Below are positions 7,976 to 15,842 of a stretch of 40,000 nt of DNA, piece by piece. A model generated the notes under the pieces. That model saw nothing but the letters and a program-made list of their open reading frames with translations, made no database searches and had not been told where the DNA came from. Source of the stretch: Domibacillus iocasae (GTDB taxonomy: Bacteria > Bacillota > Bacilli > Bacillales > Domibacillaceae); assembly GCF_001750285.1 (NCBI RefSeq), contig NZ_MAMP01000012.1:353751-393750 (forward strand). Direction: 5' to 3'. The position numbers and the translations under genes are program-made. Every line of letters starts with the position of its first letter. Within the stretch, counting starts at the first letter, position 1.

Positions 7976-8664
7976 GGGATTGTCAGCACCTGGCCAGGAT
8001 AGATCCATTTGCCTGGCTGCCGAATGTTCCGCTTATCGCGTTTGATGAGCATATCTTTGTTGGCATTCCAGATTTTTTTCCACTGTAAGCTGTCCTTGTA
8101 GATGTCTTTAGCAATGTTCCACAGTTCATCACCTTTTTTGACTTTGTACGTTTTCGGCTTTGTGGCTGCCTTTGGATCGGGCCGGTTCGAACTTGTCGTT
8201 GTTGGCTTTGCCGGTTTCTTTGTATCAATCTTTTTGTTTTTCACAAAAATATACGTATGCAGCGTGAGCGAATAATTCAGATCACCGATTGCGCCGCCGA
8301 CTTCATCATGAGGAAACTCCTCAATGGACACAGGGGAATTAATATTCGTGCCTGTCACAATAAAGCGGCACGGAAGCCCGCTGTCCCGCCATCGTTCAAT
8401 GATAGCGATATATTCCCGCGGCTTTAACACCTGTGAAGTTGGCATTTCAACCAAAGGCGTCGTGTAATGACGCGGAAAAAAAGACGAAAACGAAAACGTC
8501 TTCGCCCCTGTTTTCTGCAAAACGGTCGCTTCACCCAGATTAGGCAGATAAATTTTTTCATTATTGCTGGGACTGCTGAAATCAATAGATGAAGGCAGGA
8601 TAGGCAGGCGTATTTTTTCTTTGCCCTGTGACAACCAAAACTGATAAATGCTTTTTTTAGCCAT
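7972..8664 (-). CDS. LysM-domain tail protein (XkdP-like)
   Basis: The C-terminal sequence YKVKKGDELWNIAKDIYKDSLQWKKIWNANKDMLIKRDKRNIRQPGKWIYPGQVLTIP is a LysM motif. The gene lies directly after the tape measure gene. Confidence 0.8.
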   Translation of the reverse strand: MAKKSIYQFWLSQGKEKIRLPILPSSIDFSSPSNNEKIYLPNLGEATVLQKTGAKTFSFSSFFPRHYTTPLVEMPTSQVLKPREYIAIIERWRDSGLPCRFIVTGTNINSPVSIEEFPHDEVGGAIGDLNYSLTLHTYIFVKNKKIDTKKPAKPTTTSSNRPDPKAATKPKTYKVKKGDELWNIAKDIYKDSLQWKKIWNANKDMLIKRDKRNIRQPGKWIYPGQVLTIP

Positions 8665-11600
8665 CTACCGCCAAACCTCCCATCGCATTGTATTCTTCTT
8701 CGATTTTCTTTTCCACGGCTTTAACGGCAATCACGCCGACTTTTTCTGCATCCATATCGTTGTGATAATGGCTTTCGCCCATGATCTGCACAATGACATC
8801 CCGTACACTGCTTTTGACAGCTTGGACGCTTCTGCTCATGGCAGATTGTACGTTGTTCACTTGTTCAGTCGGCAATATTACTGGAGCACTTGCGGCTGCT
8901 ACCGGTGCCGACGAAACGCCCAAAGCGCTTTGTGCATAGTCAAGCAAGCCCAGGGCACGGCTTCGGTGTTGTTCGAGAGGGATAATAACCTCTTTCTTGT
9001 TGCCTTCCCCTACACGGGCAATGTGATCATGTGTGATAACACCGCCTCTTTCATAAGGCTTGTATCCGCCGCCATTCATCATGCTCTTAATACCTGGATG
9101 ATTCATCACACCGCCATACCGTGAATCCATGTAACGAATGGCTGCTAAAGCTGAATGAAGCGGATTGGTCCGATCATTGAAGCCACCGACTTTATGAGCA
9201 TTAAAGGTTGAGCCGATAATCTGGAACAATCCGACTGACGGATCGCCCCTTTGTGCGTTAATGTCCCAGTCATTTATCGCATTAGGGTTGAAACCGGACT
9301 CTTTCTGCGCAATGGTCATCAAAGGATTGAGTAAGCTCATCGGCTTTCCGAGCATCGCCAACGCCTGCATGATCGCTTGTGACGCCATACCTGCCCCGCC
9401 GCCGCCGAAATTGCCACTAAATGCTGTCATCAATTCATCAGCCTTACTTTTCGCAATGTTTGATACATCCACGCCGCTGAATCCTTTAACTACACCCATC
9501 GCGGACCAGTAACCGTTCTCTATCATTCTCTTTGCCGGCGATGCAATGCCTAGCTCTTGCCGGAATGCGGTATCAACTCTGTTTGCCAGATCTTTCGCCG
9601 CTTCTGTGACACTGCTTCCTTGGCTGTTCATTCCGGTGACGAAATAGCCAATCATGCCAGAACCCCAATCATAAGCTTTCGGAACGAATGCTCTTGTCGG
9701 TGTTTCTACATGGTTTCTCAGCCAAATACTCATGCCGACCGGAATCGCCTTGATGCCTTCTTTAAAGTTGTACACAAGAGCAGATCCATATGGCCGTGAT
9801 CCGGCTGCCGCTGAATTGAGTGGCTGATAAATTTCACTGCTGATCCAAGCTGTCATTTTCAGCGGCGATGTATTCAAACCGCTCATAAAGCCGTAAGCGA
9901 AGGCATAGCCATAATGGTTCGCACTTGTGGCTGCATTGCCCAGTGGCGCATACACTTTTTCCAGAAGCCAATTCGTCACCGTCACTGGTGCGGTATTCAG
10001 CCCCTGTGCAAATCCATAAGCAAAGGCATAGCCAAAGTGATTTGCGCTTATCGAAGCGTTGCCCGTTGGCGCATACACCTTTTCAGTAAGCCATCCCGTC
10101 ACATTGATTGGAGAAGTATTCATGCCTTGTACAAAACTGTATGAAAAGGCGTAACCAAAATGATTTGCGCTTGTCGCTGCATTTCCCATCGGTGCATAGA
10201 CTTTTGATGACAGCCATGTGACGACTGAAACTGTTGCCCCATTCAATCCATTAGAAAAATTCGTGGCAAAGGCTTTTCCATATGTGCTTCCTTTTTCAGA
10301 CAAGGCTTTTAACTCTTTTTCCACACCTGCAGTTACAGAGCCAGACGTTCCCGTGGCTGCTTCTTTCTTTTCACCACCGCCGAACATGCCGCCTATCCAG
10401 CTGCCGATCTTATCTCCGCCAAAATAGCCGAGTGCACCGCCTGCCAATGTGCCAAGCGGTCCGAGAAGTGAACCAGCTGCCGCTCCTGCCGCTGCTCCAC
10501 CAAATCCTCCGACAGCTCCTCCGATGGCTTGGTTTCGTTCCTGTCCCGCCTGTGAAGTGAAGATATCGTATGCAGCTATGCTGAGTCCCACTGGAAGAAC
10601 AGCTTTACCGAGTGTGCCGAGCATTTTGCCGCCCTTTCCGCCTTTGGTGGTTTTTCCTCCGCCAGTGCCGAAAATAGGGTTGTCCTTTGGCGCTTTAATT
10701 TTGAAGAGATCCTTCAATTTAGTGGACAAAGTACCGGTTGATTTTGCTCCATCCTTTGCCTTTCGATCCATCCTGCTCATGCTGTCCGTGACATCATCAA
10801 GCCCTTTTGTGCCGCCTTTCCCACCTTTTCCGCCTTTCAGACCTTTTACAAAGTCTAAAGCATCCCCCAATTTTTTAAGAGTAGGGATAACAACTAAAGC
10901 GCCCAAACCCAAAGCACCAATTGCTACTGTTCCAATACCAATGGCCGGACCAAGTATGTTAAAGTGATCGACACCGAATTGAATAGCTGGCACTAATTTG
11001 TCACTGAAAAAACCAGCAAAGTCGGAAATGGATGTGGTCATATCTTCAATCGCGGCTTTTCCTTCTGAAGATGAAAGCCATGTGTTCAGTTTCTCAGCAG
11101 CAGGAACCATACTGGTCAAGATCCCTACGCCCACATCGCTAATAGTTGACTTCAATTCCCGTCCGGCATCATTGATCGGTGTCATCGGATTGTTCTTCCG
11201 CATCGTATCAAACTGTTTGTTCAGTTCTCCTGTTGCTTTTGCCGGTTCGTTAACAGCTCCCGCCATATCCAGGATTGGCTGTTTAAGATCCTCGTATTTT
11301 GTCCCGATTAGCGTGGTTGCAATCGCTACTCTGTCCTGTTCATTCGTAATTTCAGATAATCCTTTAGCCATCCGGAACATGGCTTCCTGCCCTGTATACG
11401 AGCCATCTTCAAAGCCTTTAAACATTTTCTTCGCTTCATCAGCACCGAGAACCTTTTTGAATGCCGCCACTTGATCATCTGACATTTCGTTACGTTTCAA
11501 GTTGAATTCACGCATACTATCTGCCATATCGTCGAAATTCCGGGCGCCGCCTTTTGTTCCAGCCACAAAGGCAGCCGATACTTGTTCTGGTGCCATTTGC

Positions 11601-12442
11601 ATGTCCACAAAACTGGAAGAATACTCATTAAATGTGTCTAAAAGGTCCTCGTACTGATCCCCAGCATTCTTGAATACGTACGCAATGTTGTCACCAGCAC
11701 GGCCTGTATCCATGTCGAAGTTTTTTATCATGCTTCCTAATGCACGATCCACTTCCGGCACATCTTTTTGGTACAGCTGCGCGATTTGATTTGAGGTCAA
11801 TACGGCATTTTTCAAGCCATCGCCTTTTAGATCCGTCTGCTGTGCCATATTTTGAAAGGACATTGCCACTTCTTCACGAGAATTCCCAGTCTTTTGATTG
11901 TAAAAAATATCATTGACAACGCTATTCACACCACTGACAGACCTACCTGTAGTAGCGGCTGTTCGGGCATTCGTTTCCATTGCCGATGCAGCGCCTGCCA
12001 CAGCCATACCGCCTGCCAATCCAGTACCTGCCGTTATTTTCAAAGCAGTGTCTTGTAATCCCTGCAAACGAGCTTCAATATTGGAAATAGCAGCAGTCGC
12101 TTGATCATCGACGGACACTTTCGCTTCGGCATGTGTGCCGCTGATTCCTTTTGCTTTCTTTTGGATCGCATCCATTTTTGAAGATGCCTGGTCATTTACG
12201 GAAACAGTCGGCTTCGCATGAATCTTCCCCGCGGTACCTAAGTCATTCTTAATCGTTTTGATTTTTCCGGAAGCCCCATCAATCACCGAAAGAGTAGGGC
12301 TGGCTTTGGCTTGGTCTAAGCGATTGAGTGCTTTGCTGGATGCCTGTGTCACGGATTCTACTTTTTCCAGGCTGCCATGAAGCCCTTTAAGCTTGCTGGA
12401 TATATGGTCTTTCATTTCAAATGTTGCGGTTAATGTTGCCAA
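8657..12442 (-). CDS. Tail tape measure protein with Gly-zipper membrane segments and a C-terminal lytic transglycosylase (SLT) domain
   Basis: 1261 aa with a TTG start 7 nt after AAGGAGG. It is coiled-coil rich, with KGGKGGKGG and GGxxG runs. The SLT motif IAQKESGFNPNAINDWDINAQRGDPSVGLFQIIGSTF lies near the C-terminus. Confidence 0.9.
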   Translation of the reverse strand: MATLTATFEMKDHISSKLKGLHGSLEKVESVTQASSKALNRLDQAKASPTLSVIDGASGKIKTIKNDLGTAGKIHAKPTVSVNDQASSKMDAIQKKAKGISGTHAEAKVSVDDQATAAISNIEARLQGLQDTALKITAGTGLAGGMAVAGAASAMETNARTAATTGRSVSGVNSVVNDIFYNQKTGNSREEVAMSFQNMAQQTDLKGDGLKNAVLTSNQIAQLYQKDVPEVDRALGSMIKNFDMDTGRAGDNIAYVFKNAGDQYEDLLDTFNEYSSSFVDMQMAPEQVSAAFVAGTKGGARNFDDMADSMREFNLKRNEMSDDQVAAFKKVLGADEAKKMFKGFEDGSYTGQEAMFRMAKGLSEITNEQDRVAIATTLIGTKYEDLKQPILDMAGAVNEPAKATGELNKQFDTMRKNNPMTPINDAGRELKSTISDVGVGILTSMVPAAEKLNTWLSSSEGKAAIEDMTTSISDFAGFFSDKLVPAIQFGVDHFNILGPAIGIGTVAIGALGLGALVVIPTLKKLGDALDFVKGLKGGKGGKGGTKGLDDVTDSMSRMDRKAKDGAKSTGTLSTKLKDLFKIKAPKDNPIFGTGGGKTTKGGKGGKMLGTLGKAVLPVGLSIAAYDIFTSQAGQERNQAIGGAVGGFGGAAAGAAAGSLLGPLGTLAGGALGYFGGDKIGSWIGGMFGGGEKKEAATGTSGSVTAGVEKELKALSEKGSTYGKAFATNFSNGLNGATVSVVTWLSSKVYAPMGNAATSANHFGYAFSYSFVQGMNTSPINVTGWLTEKVYAPTGNASISANHFGYAFAYGFAQGLNTAPVTVTNWLLEKVYAPLGNAATSANHYGYAFAYGFMSGLNTSPLKMTAWISSEIYQPLNSAAAGSRPYGSALVYNFKEGIKAIPVGMSIWLRNHVETPTRAFVPKAYDWGSGMIGYFVTGMNSQGSSVTEAAKDLANRVDTAFRQELGIASPAKRMIENGYWSAMGVVKGFSGVDVSNIAKSKADELMTAFSGNFGGGGAGMASQAIMQALAMLGKPMSLLNPLMTIAQKESGFNPNAINDWDINAQRGDPSVGLFQIIGSTFNAHKVGGFNDRTNPLHSALAAIRYMDSRYGGVMNHPGIKSMMNGGGYKPYERGGVITHDHIARVGEGNKKEVIIPLEQHRSRALGLLDYAQSALGVSSAPVAAASAPVILPTEQVNNVQSAMSRSVQAVKSSVRDVIVQIMGESHYHNDMDAEKVGVIAVKAVEKKIEEEYNAMGGLAVDG
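9602..10216 (-). repeat. Five tandem 123-nt (41-aa) in-frame repeats inside the tape measure gene
   Basis: WL(S/T/L)xK(V/I)YAP.GNA..SANH(F/Y)GYAF.Y.F..G(M/L)NT.P... recurs. The anchoring Trp codons sit at 10216, 10093, 9970, 9847 and 9724, exactly 123 nt apart. The fifth copy is degenerate. Confidence 0.8.
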
Positions 12443-12454
12443 GTCATCGCCTCC

Positions 12455-13095
12455 TTACTTCTTCGGCTTATGATCTTTGAGATACTTTTCGACAGAAGCA
12501 TAAACAAAGGCTTTCATTCCATCCTTCATTTCCCACAAGTCTTTCAAATCCTGCGGCTTCCATTCTCTTTCGTGCAATAAAAAATGAGCGTAAACCGCAT
12601 CACGGTCTCCGCTCTCAATTAGTTTTTTGCTTCTGAAACAAGATCCTCAAATGTGTCCATATATCCGTTAATACGTTGCGCCGCTTTCATAAATTCTGCG
12701 TATTCCCCGCCGACAGACAGCATTTTCTTCAAGACTTCCACCGGATCTTGTGCGCCGAATGATTTCAGCAAGTCCTTGTCACGGAAGTTCGGATAAACAG
12801 TGGATTCAATGCCCATACGAGCGATCCAACGAGGGCGGTCAAATTCTTCCCCAACTTTTTTCGATCCTTCATAAACTGGTGTGTAACAATCCGCTTCTAT
12901 TTCTTCAATGCGTTCTGTTGTGATCGGCTTCATAACGAATGGAATAACTTTTCCTTCTGCATCAACATAACGTCTTGATACAACAACGTTTTCCTCTGTG
13001 ACTGGCTTCTCTTTGCCGGCCAAGAAAAAACTCATATCCCGTGTGTTCGATACTACCGCTGCTTTTTCTACTGCTTCTGTTTTTGGTGTTGTCAT
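12455..13095 (-). CDS. Predicted -1 frameshift fusion product of the tail assembly chaperone (XkdN-like body plus a 55-aa extension)
   Basis: The -1 frame downstream of the slippery site is open to the stop at 12455-12457 (LIESGDRDAVYAHFLLHEREWKPQDLKDLWEMKDGMKAFVYASVEKYLKDHKPKK). It has no start codon with an RBS of its own. The position between the chaperone and tape measure genes matches the conserved G/GT arrangement. Confidence 0.5.
12619..13095 (-). CDS. Tail assembly chaperone (XkdN-like)
   Basis: 158 aa, acidic C-terminus, positioned between the tube and tape measure genes. It resembles the Phage_XkdN family. Confidence 0.75.
   Translation of the reverse strand: MTTPKTEAVEKAAVVSNTRDMSFFLAGKEKPVTEENVVVSRRYVDAEGKVIPFVMKPITTERIEEIEADCYTPVYEGSKKVGEEFDRPRWIARMGIESTVYPNFRDKDLLKSFGAQDPVEVLKKMLSVGGEYAEFMKAAQRINGYMDTFEDLVSEAKN
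12622..12628 (-). other. Slippery heptamer A_AAA_AAC (programmed -1 ribosomal frameshift site)
   Basis: The last codons of the chaperone read GCA AAA AAC TAA. A_AAA_AAC fits X_XXY_YYZ in the zero frame, directly before the stop. Confidence 0.5.
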
Positions 13096-13167
13096 TTTGT
13101 GTTTCCTCCAGTTAATTGAATGATTTTTTTAAATAAAGGCTCTGTTATCGTTTGTTGTTGATTTTTA

Positions 13168-13200
13168 ACCAAAAGAAAAACCACTCATAAAGAGAGGTTT
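13168..13200 (-). terminator. Intrinsic terminator after the hydrolase cargo gene
   Basis: Hairpin AAACCACTC/GAGAGGTTT (13178-13200, one mismatch), followed on the minus strand by TTTTTCTTTT. Confidence 0.45.
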
Positions 13201-13245
13201 CTTGAACTAACGATTCTCGTTAGCTGAATAATTGAATTAGATTAA

Positions 13246-13839
13246 TTAATGTTTCAGAAAAAAGTTTACCATCTCGTTAAATGTTTTATCTGCTGATTCT
13301 CTATTATGCTTAGAGGAGTACGGGTCAGTAAATCCATGTTGTCCTCTACATTTATTTATCTTGACATTCTTTTTATCTAAAGTTGAAATTAACTGGTCAA
13401 TATTAAATGATTTTTCTTCTTGCGGAAAGAACAGCAGTGCAGGACACTGAGGTGATATTTCTACATAATCCCTAATGCGTGAACCATAGTATCCAACGAT
13501 TCCATCAACACGTTTTTCCTCACTACACAACCAAGCAACCGTTGCTCCTACACTAAACCCGACAACAAACACCTTTTGATATTCATTTTTAATATCTGAT
13601 ATCAAATCTCTAATTTTATGCAAAGCATTAATAAAACCTATATTCCCCATAAAATTACGATAAGCAATTTCCTCTTGAGAATAATCAAAAGGTGCTTTTT
13701 GTTCTAATAAATTAGGGCAAATGACATCAAAATCATATGCCGATAATAATTGACAAATATCCTTCATATGCTGGTTAATTCCATAGATTTCATGAATTAC
13801 AATGATTGCAGTATCGGAGTTTTTCTGTTTATTAATCAT
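13246..13839 (-). CDS. Dienelactone hydrolase-family alpha/beta hydrolase (cargo gene)
   Basis: 197 aa. AIIVIHEIYGINQHMKDICQLLSAYDFDVICPNL is the DLH-type N-terminus. VVGFSVGATVAW is a nucleophile elbow (GxSxG). A C-terminal GQHGF contains a His. A GGGGGAGGTG RBS is present. The gene is AT-rich compared with the flanking tail genes. Confidence 0.7.
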   Translation of the reverse strand: MINKQKNSDTAIIVIHEIYGINQHMKDICQLLSAYDFDVICPNLLEQKAPFDYSQEEIAYRNFMGNIGFINALHKIRDLISDIKNEYQKVFVVGFSVGATVAWLCSEEKRVDGIVGYYGSRIRDYVEISPQCPALLFFPQEEKSFNIDQLISTLDKKNVKINKCRGQHGFTDPYSSKHNRESADKTFNEMVNFFLKH

Positions 13840-14007
13840 TTTTCACCTCCCCCGATTATCTACTCTCATTATACAATTAATACTAAACCCTATCTTTGCT
13901 TCTTTCGTTAAACTGCCCATAAGTTAAGCAAGAAAATCAACAATGACGTTTAACAGAGCCTAAATAAAAAGAGAAAAGGCTGCTAAAAGCCACCCCTTCT
14001 TTCCGGA

Positions 14008-14454
14008 TTAAAATCCTGCTGCTAATTCTTCAGGCAGATCCGCATCTTCGAATGTGAACGGCATTTCTTGTTCAAGAACCGCGCCTTCCGCATTCAATTC
14101 AGCAATTTTCGTGCTGTCAAAGTTTACATCGTAAATTGTGACACGTTCAGTGCCACGTTTAGATCCTTTGTCATCCAATACTTCCTGGAATGTGAAATAA
14201 GGATCTGCTCCTGTTTTGATGTAGTTAATCATCAATTTAACAAATCTCGATGTGACTTTGTAAATAACCAAATTCCCAGTACCGCTTGCGCCGATGGTTT
14301 TGTGGCCATCCATACGGCGACCAAGTACAGCTACTGTCGTTTTGTTTTTCTCAATGGTCGCTTCAAAGCTCTTTACATAAGCCATTTCTTCGCCATCCAA
14401 AAAGAGGCGTCCTTCTTTACCGCTGATCGTATTACCCGAGCGGAATGCTGTCAT
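14008..14454 (-). CDS. Tail tube protein (XkdM-like)
   Basis: 148 aa directly after the sheath gene. The pattern SGKEGRLFLDGEEMAYVKSFEATIEKNKTTV...GTGNLVIYKVTSRF is typical of XkdM-type tube proteins. Confidence 0.85.
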   Translation of the reverse strand: MTAFRSGNTISGKEGRLFLDGEEMAYVKSFEATIEKNKTTVAVLGRRMDGHKTIGASGTGNLVIYKVTSRFVKLMINYIKTGADPYFTFQEVLDDKGSKRGTERVTIYDVNFDSTKIAELNAEGAVLEQEMPFTFEDADLPEELAAGF

Positions 14455-14477
14455 ATTTTATTGCACCTCCTGTGTTT

Positions 14478-15842
14478 TTAGCGTACTGTTACGCCGAAAT
14501 AGAATTTCTCTGCGGCGTCCACCGGCTGAGCGCCAATGTTGATGAAAAAGCCATCTGCATCTGTATTCAATGTAATCTGAATGTCCGTTGACGAATCAAA
14601 ATTCTGCAAAGCGCCGCCTTCTTGCAAAGTATTCATGTACAAAGTAGCGGCTGTGTGGATAATCTGCATCCCATCGCCATTTGCCGGAATATCCGAACCT
14701 GCATCTTTTTTCGCCTTGATCAGTGCCTTGACTTCACGGATCAAATCGTTTTGAATGCCATCCAGGATGCGGATGATCTTGTTTTTCTGGAACCGCTTGT
14801 CTTTTGTTGCACTTAATGTGACAAGTGAGTTAATGTCTTTTTCGACTGATACCGTTCTGTCAGCTGGATCGTATGTCAACATGAAATCACCGTTTTTCAG
14901 ACCGATGATTGTTTCGTCGTTATCGAAGCGAGGAGATACATCGACAGCCCCTTCGTATTCAACGAATGTGAGTGATTGATACATCGTTGCGCCTGCGCTT
15001 GCACCCGCGACCCATGCCACTGTTTGAGCAGGAGTTAAAGTTTCGCCAGTAGCCAAAACAGCGCCATTGGTAACGTTTGTGACTCCTTCATAATCACTTG
15101 CATAGTTAGATAACACGGCACGTACTTTCCGGCCATGTTCTTCCCGAAGGCGTCTGATGAAGGAAACGAACGTTGCTTTCAGCTCATCATTTGCTGTCAC
15201 CGGTAATCCGATTGTGTCAAACTGTGCATTTTCGGCAGCCGTTAAGAAATCCGTGTATTCAAGGTTTGTAACAGTGCCATCAGTGCCGCCGGTTAATGTG
15301 ACACCTGCAGTAGCAACTAAATCGGCCGTACCTGCGAAAATAGCCCATTCATTCGCTTTTAACTCAGCGGCTGTTGTGACTGTCTGCTTATCCACCAATT
15401 GCGTCCCTGCAAACGTAGAAACATCAAATTTCGTTGAATCTAATACATTAACTTGCACAACGACTTTGATTGTATTGCCGATGACCCCACCATGCAACGC
15501 TGTCGCTGTCACGGCTGTTGTGCCCGTGCCTGCCACTGCTAATTGACCAGTTGCCTTCGTTCCCTCATTCAAGCGGTAGACAAGGACAGTCTGGCTTTTC
15601 TTTTTCGCTTCCCGAATGAGAAGGACAGACGCATGGTCAAGATCCACCCCAAGCTTTTTCTGAAAATCGCCTTCATCGGTGATTTCAATAAACGATTTTG
15701 CCTGCCCCCATGATAAAGAGACAGGAAGGGCAACTCGTCCGCTGTTTCCTGCTGCTAAACGGTTTTGTGCCGCTGATTTAAACAGAAAATACATACCAGC
15801 CCGTGCTTTTTCAACGCCTTCTGTAAATGTTCCGCTGTTCAT
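14478..15842 (-). CDS. Contractile tail sheath protein (XkdK-like)
   Basis: 454 aa. The N-terminus GTFTEGVEKARAGMYFLF..., the size and the synteny with the tube gene support the call. Confidence 0.9.
   Translation of the reverse strand: MNSGTFTEGVEKARAGMYFLFKSAAQNRLAAGNSGRVALPVSLSWGQAKSFIEITDEGDFQKKLGVDLDHASVLLIREAKKKSQTVLVYRLNEGTKATGQLAVAGTGTTAVTATALHGGVIGNTIKVVVQVNVLDSTKFDVSTFAGTQLVDKQTVTTAAELKANEWAIFAGTADLVATAGVTLTGGTDGTVTNLEYTDFLTAAENAQFDTIGLPVTANDELKATFVSFIRRLREEHGRKVRAVLSNYASDYEGVTNVTNGAVLATGETLTPAQTVAWVAGASAGATMYQSLTFVEYEGAVDVSPRFDNDETIIGLKNGDFMLTYDPADRTVSVEKDINSLVTLSATKDKRFQKNKIIRILDGIQNDLIREVKALIKAKKDAGSDIPANGDGMQIIHTAATLYMNTLQEGGALQNFDSSTDIQITLNTDADGFFINIGAQPVDAAEKFYFGVTVR

Follow-up and report, generated by a model that had tools for sequence, protein, structure and literature searches.

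A hydrolase gene between prophage tail genes of Domibacillus iocasae lies in a probable IS1595-derived mobile insertion cassette

A hydrolase gene that separates two tail genes of a prophage in Domibacillus iocasae is very probably the cargo of a mobile insertion cassette (MIC), a non-autonomous derivative of IS1595-family insertion sequences of the ISBwe1-like group. The DNA analyzed, here called the window, is the 40,000-nucleotide stretch from position 353,751 to position 393,750 of contig NZ_MAMP01000012.1 (assembly GCF_001750285.1), and positions given without a locus name are positions within it. The cassette (13138–13960, minus strand) is a discrete, transposase-less element of 823 bp with imperfect 28-nt terminal inverted repeats, and its completeness follows from where its alignment to a chromosomal copy ends (locus L001) and from an empty site in a related prophage (locus L129). 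It lies between the tail tube gene (14008–14454, minus strand; Pfam DUF2001, E=5.5e-48) and the gene for an XkdN-type tail assembly chaperone (12619–13095, minus strand; profile E=3.6e-32), and carries a 197-aa open reading frame (ORF) of the dienelactone hydrolase (DLH) type (13246–13839, minus strand; Pfam DLH, PF01738). A preliminary description of this region had noticed the gene and the short inverted repeats around it, and had proposed either that a once intergenic hairpin had received the insert in its loop or that the repeats are the ends of a small mobile cassette. The second proposal is the one borne out by a target-site duplication, an exact empty site, and copies elsewhere that end at the repeat tips.

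Read on the minus strand, the element consists of a left repeat, a −10 box and ribosome-binding site (RBS), the DLH gene, two hairpins, and a right repeat. The left repeat, on the promoter side, is GGCTCTGTTAAACGTCATTGTTGATTTT (13933–13960, minus strand), which fits the consensus of the repeat family described below, and the right repeat, with which it pairs, reads GGCTCTGTTATCGTTTGTTGTTGATTTT on the plus strand (13138–13165). From 13960 down to 13933 the left end is GGCTCTGTTA AACGTCA TTGTTGATTTT, and from 13138 to 13165 the right end is GGCTCTGTTA TCGTTTG TTGTTGATTTT, so that 22 of 28 positions are identical without gaps and the tips share a perfect 10-bp core, GGCTCTGTTA. Directly outside both tips stands a perfect 8/8 direct repeat, TAAATAAA on the plus strand and TTTATTTA on the minus strand, which constitutes the target-site duplication (13130–13137 on the chaperone side, 13961–13968 on the tube side). 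The two 11-mers from which the preliminary description started, AGGCTCTGTTA at 13137–13147 and TAACAGAGCCT at 13951–13961, are exactly as it gave them, and an inverted repeat is indeed present there; its true arms, however, are 28 nt long with a perfect core of only 10 bp, and the eleventh base pair, together with the AAATAAA taken to be the surroundings of the repeat, is part of the 8-bp direct repeat. In ~1.6% of mononucleotide shuffles, the two flanks show an 11-bp inverted repeat. The repeat, earlier judged unlikely to be due to chance, is by itself only suggestive, and it is the comparative evidence that is decisive.

In four related prophages (L128–L131; chaperone 72–80% identical at the protein level) the tube and chaperone genes are adjacent, as had been presumed to be normal, with a spacing of 60–80 bp and no hydrolase gene. 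An exact empty site, the lack of which would have spoken against an insertion, is present in L129: its spacer, TAATCCGGAAAGAAGGGGCGGCTTTTAGTCGCCTTTTCTCTTTTTATTTAAAAAAATCATTCAATTAACTGGAGGAAACACAAAATG, equals the minus strand of the window without 13138–13968, bar three substitutions in the hairpin that follows the tube gene, and it contains TTTATTTA a single time (2329–2336). Aligned to L129 by blastn, the window falls into two segments, with breaks at 13961 and 13137 and an overlap of exactly 8 bp on L129 2329–2336. The insertion point is 47 nt past the stop codon of the tube gene and 42 nt ahead of the ATG of the chaperone gene. If the cassette had instead been placed in the loop of an old intergenic hairpin, a contiguous GGCTCTGTTA...TAACAGAGCC stem should have existed ancestrally. 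The arms are complementary and intergenic, and the ancestral spacer does hold a hairpin, but that hairpin (13972–14000) differs in sequence and is located entirely outside the element, and the same arms bound a non-phage chromosomal copy as well as many unrelated elements. The preliminary description had suggested looking for joined half-sites in relatives that lack the insert; on alignment, GGCTCTGTTA half-sites are absent from L129 and equally from the looser empty sites of L128, L130, and L131. These half-site-free empty sites refute insertion into a hairpin loop, to which we now give practically no credence, and confirm an insertion of the transposition type.

The exact sequence of the window's DLH protein is not on record, and its relatives were reached through its closest homologue (97% identity), from Cytobacillus purgationiresistens, and the cluster to which that homologue belongs. 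The gene for this homologue occupies a non-phage chromosomal locus (L001), flanked on one side by genes for a MerR-type regulator and an ABC transporter and on the other by a gene for a short-chain fatty acid transporter. Cassette and chromosome are 96.8% identical over 824 bp, the limits of similarity are the repeat tips (13138–13960 in the window, ~5880–6692 in L001), and the flanks are unrelated; the L001 copy is bordered by TAAAAAAA and AAAAAAAA, a 7/8 duplication. Because the repeats also bound this chromosomal copy, they must have arrived with the element. Two further ~97% copies occur in other contexts, each shortened at one or both ends. One (L138) follows a RadC-like gene and has kept the left repeat, and it is rearranged directly past the stop codon. 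The other, a remnant in L137 (3902–6603; Logan SRR11096037) that encodes the DLH protein of Peribacillus saganii, has lost both repeats and adjoins two large serine recombinase genes and a TrkH gene, which suggests that it now rides another mobile element and has crossed genera. The contexts of the cassette are therefore a prophage (the window), the chromosome (L001 and L002), a third setting (L138), and the remnant. A more distant copy, 73% identical (L133), keeps only the left repeat tip and the −10 region, and no repeats were found around DLH homologues of 68–74% identity in Peribacillus and Neobacillus (L134–L136), so the DLH gene family is not generally cassette-borne. With 1842 homologues of the cargo protein at E <= 0.001, this is a widespread chromosomal gene of Bacillaceae, one lineage of which was captured into the cassette.

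The ends of the element recur well beyond the DLH gene. We scanned one genome per species with the pattern GGCTCTGTTA-N8-TGTTGATWTT and obtained at least 119 matching stretches, nearly all in Bacillaceae; 228 repeat copies among the matches listed yield the family consensus GGCTCTGTTAAA-N6-TGTTGATTTT. When the nearest inverted pairs among the matches listed (n=73) were inspected for flanking repeats, 39 showed 8/8 agreement and another 15 showed 7/8, whereas control 8-mers taken one step further outward from the same pairs never exceeded 5/8. Duplications of the family are 92% A+T. By size, the elements among the matches listed are mostly MITEs (miniature inverted-repeat transposable elements) of 127–282 bp, along with some of 344–517 bp, cargo cassettes, and full insertion sequences. 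A first scan, of viral sequences and with a pattern of 17 specified bases, had given six matches, of which four were due to chance and only L005 and L006 were real.

These figures bear on another origin that could be imagined for the gene. Phage morons are extra transcription units between conserved phage genes, a notion that comes from lambdoid phage genomics, and the hydrolase gene might be an ordinary moron acquired by illegitimate or homologous recombination, with its inverted and direct repeats there by chance. Such an origin would agree with the site between conserved phage genes, with a possible −10 box and terminator of its own, with the frequency at which shuffles alone produce an 11-bp inverted repeat, and with the low G+C content of the element (32.4%, compared with 42.1% in the remainder of the window; the insert had rightly been called AT-rich). 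However, the tips are directly adjoined by a perfect 8-bp duplication and are also where similarity to other copies stops, the combination of repeat and duplication is found in 39 of the 73 pairs and in none of the controls, and the repeats are those of IS1595-family insertion sequences. A chance arrangement of this sort we consider scarcely credible, and transposition remains the reading that we adopt.

The MITEs with these ends and perfect AT-rich 8-bp duplications were seen in Neobacillus, Mesobacillus, Ectobacillus, Gottfriedia, Halobacillus, Priestia, and other genera; examples, among loci L009–L127, are L053 6429–6604, L076 3401–3583, and L062 2449–2724. Their cores are of at least two types, one a G+C-rich hairpin (~176–185 bp) and the other AT-rich (~276 bp) with repeated GCGGAGAAxTTCCG motifs.

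The link to IS1595 comes from the full-length relatives. The repeats of the window follow the GGCTCTGTTA-N8-TGTTGAT design that bounds the transposase genes of L005, L030, L140, and L141. The L005 element is 1611 bp long, is flanked by the duplication TAATTTAA, and encodes a 342-aa transposase (NCBIfam transpos_IS1595, E=1.6e-65, 221 bits; Pfam DDE_Tnp_IS1595 and a zinc ribbon) beside a Zn_ribbon_2 cargo gene. In L030, a perfect duplication, TTTTTAGT, encloses a frameshifted transposase gene; in L141 (Bacillus cytotoxicus pCh1_14), the duplication is TTAAACAA and the gene is annotated as “IS1595 family transposase”; and in L140 (1412–2947; Bacillus mycoides KBAB4 pBWB401), the annotation is “IS1595-like element ISBwe1 family transposase.” Every transposase found between or adjoining these repeats is of the IS1595 family (L005, L030, L104, L140, and L141, with remnants in L027, L031, and L117). 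ISBwe1 and its relatives on the B. mycoides and B. cytotoxicus plasmids thus have the same GGCTCTGTTA-N8-TGTTGAT(A/T) ends as the window element. AT-rich 8-bp duplications bound L141 and L005 as they bound the window element, although not the ISBwe1 copy in L140, and a hairpin with a T tract beside the right repeat is shared with L005. In ISBwe1-like insertion sequences, the transposase gene is often followed by a single small cargo gene, whereas the window element has no transposase gene and a hydrolase gene fills its interior. AT-rich 8-bp direct repeats are what IS1595-family elements create (PMC12561309). As an observation on L030 (6037–7090; Sediminibacillus albus), its transposase is split into ORFs of 115 and 202 aa in an element that is otherwise complete, and this may be either a decayed copy or a case of IS1-like programmed frameshifting.

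Other insertion sequence families that duplicate 8 bp, namely IS6/IS26 or ISL3, could be considered as the source. Their ends, which we take to begin with GG(C/T)xCTGTT or GGCTCTT, resemble the present ones over the first seven to nine bases, the duplication is of the same size, and an IS6-family transposase gene lies ~1.3 kb from a sister cassette on a plasmid (L139). That gene, however, is not bounded by these repeats, and every transposase that can be tied to them is IS1595-family. An ISL3 or IS6 origin was rejected, the L005 transposase scoring 221 bits with the IS1595 model and 16.8 with the ISL3 model (cut-off 180), and we hold it to be very improbable.

The hydrolase gene is the only long ORF of the element, and no DDE transposase with an N-terminal zinc ribbon is encoded there. 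With the transposase absent, the element is a derivative of the IS1595 family rather than an insertion sequence and cannot move alone. Both MICs and MITEs are insertion-sequence derivatives that can be activated or mobilized by a cognate transposase (PMC3129680), and the window cassette would likewise have been mobilized by a transposase supplied in trans. An IS1595/ISBwe1-like DDE transposase, provided by a full-length copy elsewhere in the genome, would recognize the 28-nt ends and insert the element into the AT-rich 8-mer TTTATTTA within the T tract that follows the terminator of the tube gene, duplicating the 8-mer as it did so. The hydrolase would then be a hitch-hiking bacterial gene and not a component of the tail, and what the phage gained would be a moron-like unit, possibly with transcription signals of its own.

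The cargo protein matches the Pfam DLH profile PF01738 with E=3.7e-23 (82.7 bits, cut-off 21) over profile positions 10–214 of 217, and it contains the GFSVG nucleophile elbow; the profile search that had been recommended thus supports the class first proposed from motifs. No Pfam domain other than the hydrolase is present. Across 36 homologues (63–97% identity), His16, Glu17, Ser96, Arg121, Arg123, Glu142, and His168 are invariant, with Ser96 located in GFSVG and His168 in GQHGF. A profile search of the PDB matched the Pseudomonas dienelactone hydrolase ClcD (E ~1e-14), to which the protein aligns so that Ser96 corresponds to position 123, His168 to His202, and Glu17 to Glu36, while the invariant Glu142, which is probably the catalytic acid, falls one alignment column from ClcD Asp171. 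An AlphaFold2 model (mean pLDDT 88.7, pTM 0.88) resembles the ClcD structures 1din, 1zi9, and 1zj5 in Foldseek with TM-scores of 0.81–0.89. The preliminary description had asked whether structural modelling would leave the protein without a catalytic triad; the fold and the catalytic Ser and His are in place, the acid being probably Glu142, and the cargo can be taken, as predicted, for an intact serine hydrolase of the dienelactone-hydrolase fold. With ClcD (Pseudomonas; 1din, 1zi9), it has in common the alpha/beta-hydrolase fold, and the HE(I/L)xG motif, the nucleophile elbow, and the HGF histidine align; it differs in being only 19–23% identical and ~35 residues shorter, in having Ser as the nucleophile where ClcD has Cys, in its probable acid Glu142, and in lacking chlorocatechol pathway genes in its neighborhood. 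No catechol-pathway genes were found near the cargo gene, and dienelactone (carboxymethylenebutenolide) is at most a candidate substrate.

It might still be asked whether the hydrolase is a selected function of the phage, such as a virion-associated or lysogenic-conversion esterase, whose placement is adaptive, a proposal that is compatible with transposition. In its favor are an intact ORF with the orientation of the tail operon, the conservation of the catalytic residues, and a sister cassette (L006) that is likewise co-oriented within a tail operon. On the other hand, the gene is absent from all four related prophages, its ~97%-identical copies are in non-phage contexts, the protein has no Pfam domain but the hydrolase and stems from a family that is widespread on Bacillaceae chromosomes, and the element family simply targets AT-rich 8-mers. 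Nothing was found that links the hydrolase to tail function, and we judge a selected role of this type to be unlikely.

The signals by which the cassette might be expressed can be read on the minus strand at 13844–13873, where the RBS GGAGGTG (13844–13850) stands 7 nt ahead of the ATG and TATAAT occupies 13868–13873, in agreement with the strong RBS and −10 sequence reported before. The surrounding stretch, GTATTAATTGTATAATGAGAG, is conserved in L133 and in part upstream of the repeat-less homologue in L134. Past the DLH stop codon are two hairpins (13169–13224, minus strand): the first is CUAACGAGAAUCGUUAG, and the second, just inside the right repeat, is a terminator-like stem with UUUUUCUUUUGG after it. 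The hairpin and U tract (13169–13203) are those that the preliminary description called terminator-like. For the two hairpins, the predicted RNA fold has an energy of −21.5 kcal/mol (z = −2.5); the L001 copy has lost part of the second one. A promoter and terminator scan of the cassette found nothing that qualified, with six promoter-like sites against 6.1 expected and the sole terminator-like match inside the ORF; the expression signals accordingly rest on the consensus −10 box, on its conservation in L133, and on RNA folding. The window cassette, the sister cassettes L006 and L139, and the insertion sequence L005 all have a hairpin and T tract just inside the right repeat, and therefore the supposed terminator looks like a part of the insertion-sequence chassis.

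The cassette did not introduce the first such structure into the operon. It sits in the T-rich stretch that follows an ancestral terminator or attenuator hairpin after the tube gene (13972–14000, minus strand), which lies outside the cassette and is present in the empty sites L129 and L130. In L129 (2297–2325), this hairpin has a perfect 13-bp stem and resembles an intrinsic terminator (−21.1 kcal/mol, z = −3.1), whereas its window counterpart has two stem mismatches and is weaker, at −13 kcal/mol. The weakening could reflect relaxation or compensation after a second terminator was added, or simply drift. Because the terminator hairpin is ancestral and stronger in L129, read-through from tube to chaperone was already needed before the cassette arrived. 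With the cassette, possible start signals of its own came to lie between the two genes, as did a second hairpin followed by a U tract, which, if it acts as a terminator, may affect expression of the tail genes.

Several observations weigh against reading the element as a mobile cassette of IS1595 origin. Transposition has been read from sequences, and no event has been observed directly. No transposase gene is present in the element or in the 40-kb window, where tblastn with the L005 transposase found nothing. The flanks of the ISBwe1 copy in L140, TAATTTTT and AAAAATTA, are not direct repeats but reverse complements of one another, a hint that an inversion took place or that two copies recombined. 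Among the four near-identical DLH cassettes, divergence is ~3%, and one or both ends are missing from two, so the window cassette may no longer be active. Further, the promoter scan found a consensus −10 box but no acceptable −35 box, for which reason promoter activity of the cassette is something that we infer.

Transposase-less cassettes with the same ends carry unrelated cargo in genomic, plasmid, and prophage contexts. The genomic ones include a 760-bp cassette with a SnoaL/DUF4440 gene (L012; duplication TAAATATA), two with the duplication TTTTATTA, of which one (L055, 2002 bp) has genes for MarR, GNAT, and membrane proteins and the other (L070, 2562 bp) has these and FMN_bind_2, and one of 1188 bp with HTH_26 and DUF2975 genes (L110; 7/8 duplication, GTTACAAA and TTTACAAA). 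On a Bacillus pseudomycoides plasmid, a 676-bp cassette with a DUF4303 gene (L139) is flanked by TTTATCTA, and the same plasmid also holds a degraded ISBwe1-like transposase gene. Three come from phages or prophages. One of ~540 bp (L006, IMGVR_UViG_2911842816_000001, 1835–2373; duplication TTTCAGAA) encodes a predicted 90-aa membrane protein without a Pfam match and lies in the tail operon of another phage, between the stop codon of the tape measure gene and the RBS of the distal tail protein gene; it is co-oriented, and it ends just upstream of the RBS of that next gene. Another (L146, 561 bp) is in a prophage lysogeny module and has a 118-aa ORF and a 7/8 duplication, ATTTTTTA and ACTTTTTA, and the third (L147/L143), in a prophage, has a membrane ORF and the duplication TTTATTTT. 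For the viral loci L142, L148, and L149, partner repeats were not found, the loci being either truncated at their ends or degraded. A motif resembling AACTAACGGGGCAGTTTAGTT(A/G)AAGAA was seen near the left repeat in the window (13900–13925, minus strand) and in L006 (2310–2345, minus strand), and also at L134 ~2410–2445 and L133 3115–3145, where it flanks DLH homologues, upstream of the repeat-less one and downstream of the other. The motif may form a hairpin or bind a transposase, or it may be a regulatory site.

The operon that received the cassette lies on the minus strand and carries structural genes of a PBSX-like myovirus prophage; it encodes, besides the tube and chaperone, the small and large terminase, portal, capsid protein, sheath (14478–15842, minus strand), tape measure protein (1261 aa, 8657–12442), and baseplate proteins, and the ORFs downstream of the cassette are intact. 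The chaperone and tape measure genes have between them a 40-aa ORF (12455–12577, minus strand) that matches nothing in Pfam; it is in what we take to be the usual place of the frameshift-extended chaperone product (xkdN/xkzB in PBSX). In 50,697 phage records, neither megablast of 12400–14700 nor blastn of the cassette gave a match.

Elements of this general kind, that is, insertion-sequence derivatives with cargo and insertion sequences within prophages, are already known. MIC231, for instance, is an IS231-derived element of the IS4 family, found in the Bacillus cereus group and mobilizable by its parent insertion sequence, and the window cassette differs from it in having an IS1595 and not an IS4 parent and in its repeats and duplication length. 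The concept of transposase-less ends enclosing cargo is the same in both and in the other MICs (De Palmenaer et al. 2004, as cited in PMC3129680). Cargo-carrying insertion sequences have been described for the IS1595 family itself, and the “transporter” type (Siguier, Gagnevin and Chandler 2009, as cited in PMC3129680 and PMC12561309) has ends that enclose genes not concerned with transposition. L005, L141, and L140 are of the transporter type, with the transposase kept, whereas the window cassette lost its transposase or never had one. In the literature searched, there was no description of this repeat type, of the MITE and cassette family with ISBwe1 ends, or of this cassette and the breadth of its family, and a search with the repeat sequence returned only unrelated eukaryotic primer sequences. 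The cassette resembles a moron in that it adds a gene between conserved tail genes, is missing from relatives, has a lower G+C content, and has a possible −10 box and terminator; for morons, the route of acquisition is usually unknown, whereas here it is visible in the repeats and duplication left by transposition.

A puzzling esterase gene within a tail operon has thereby been given a clear history, the jump of an IS1595-type cassette with a bacterial hydrolase gene, and annotators should not treat the hydrolase as a protein of the tail or virion. The case is a clean one of gene gain by a prophage through transposition, documented by an empty site, and it has uncovered a large family of elements in Bacillaceae, MITEs and cargo cassettes that share ISBwe1 ends. 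The second terminator-like hairpin, in an otherwise intact-looking PBSX-like prophage, makes this operon a natural test case for polarity among tail genes. More tentatively, and as a possibility on which we would not yet rely, ISBwe1-type cassettes may be a general means, not described until now, of bringing ready-made gene units into the prophages and chromosomes of Bacillaceae. If so, each unit would comprise a start region and a single small cargo gene, with a terminator built in beside the right repeat, it would land in AT-rich intergenic tracts such as the T tracts of terminators, and its swappable pool of cargo would include hydrolase, SnoaL-like, GNAT with MarR, DUF4303, and small membrane proteins. 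Phages would then have a concrete transposition route for the acquisition of morons.

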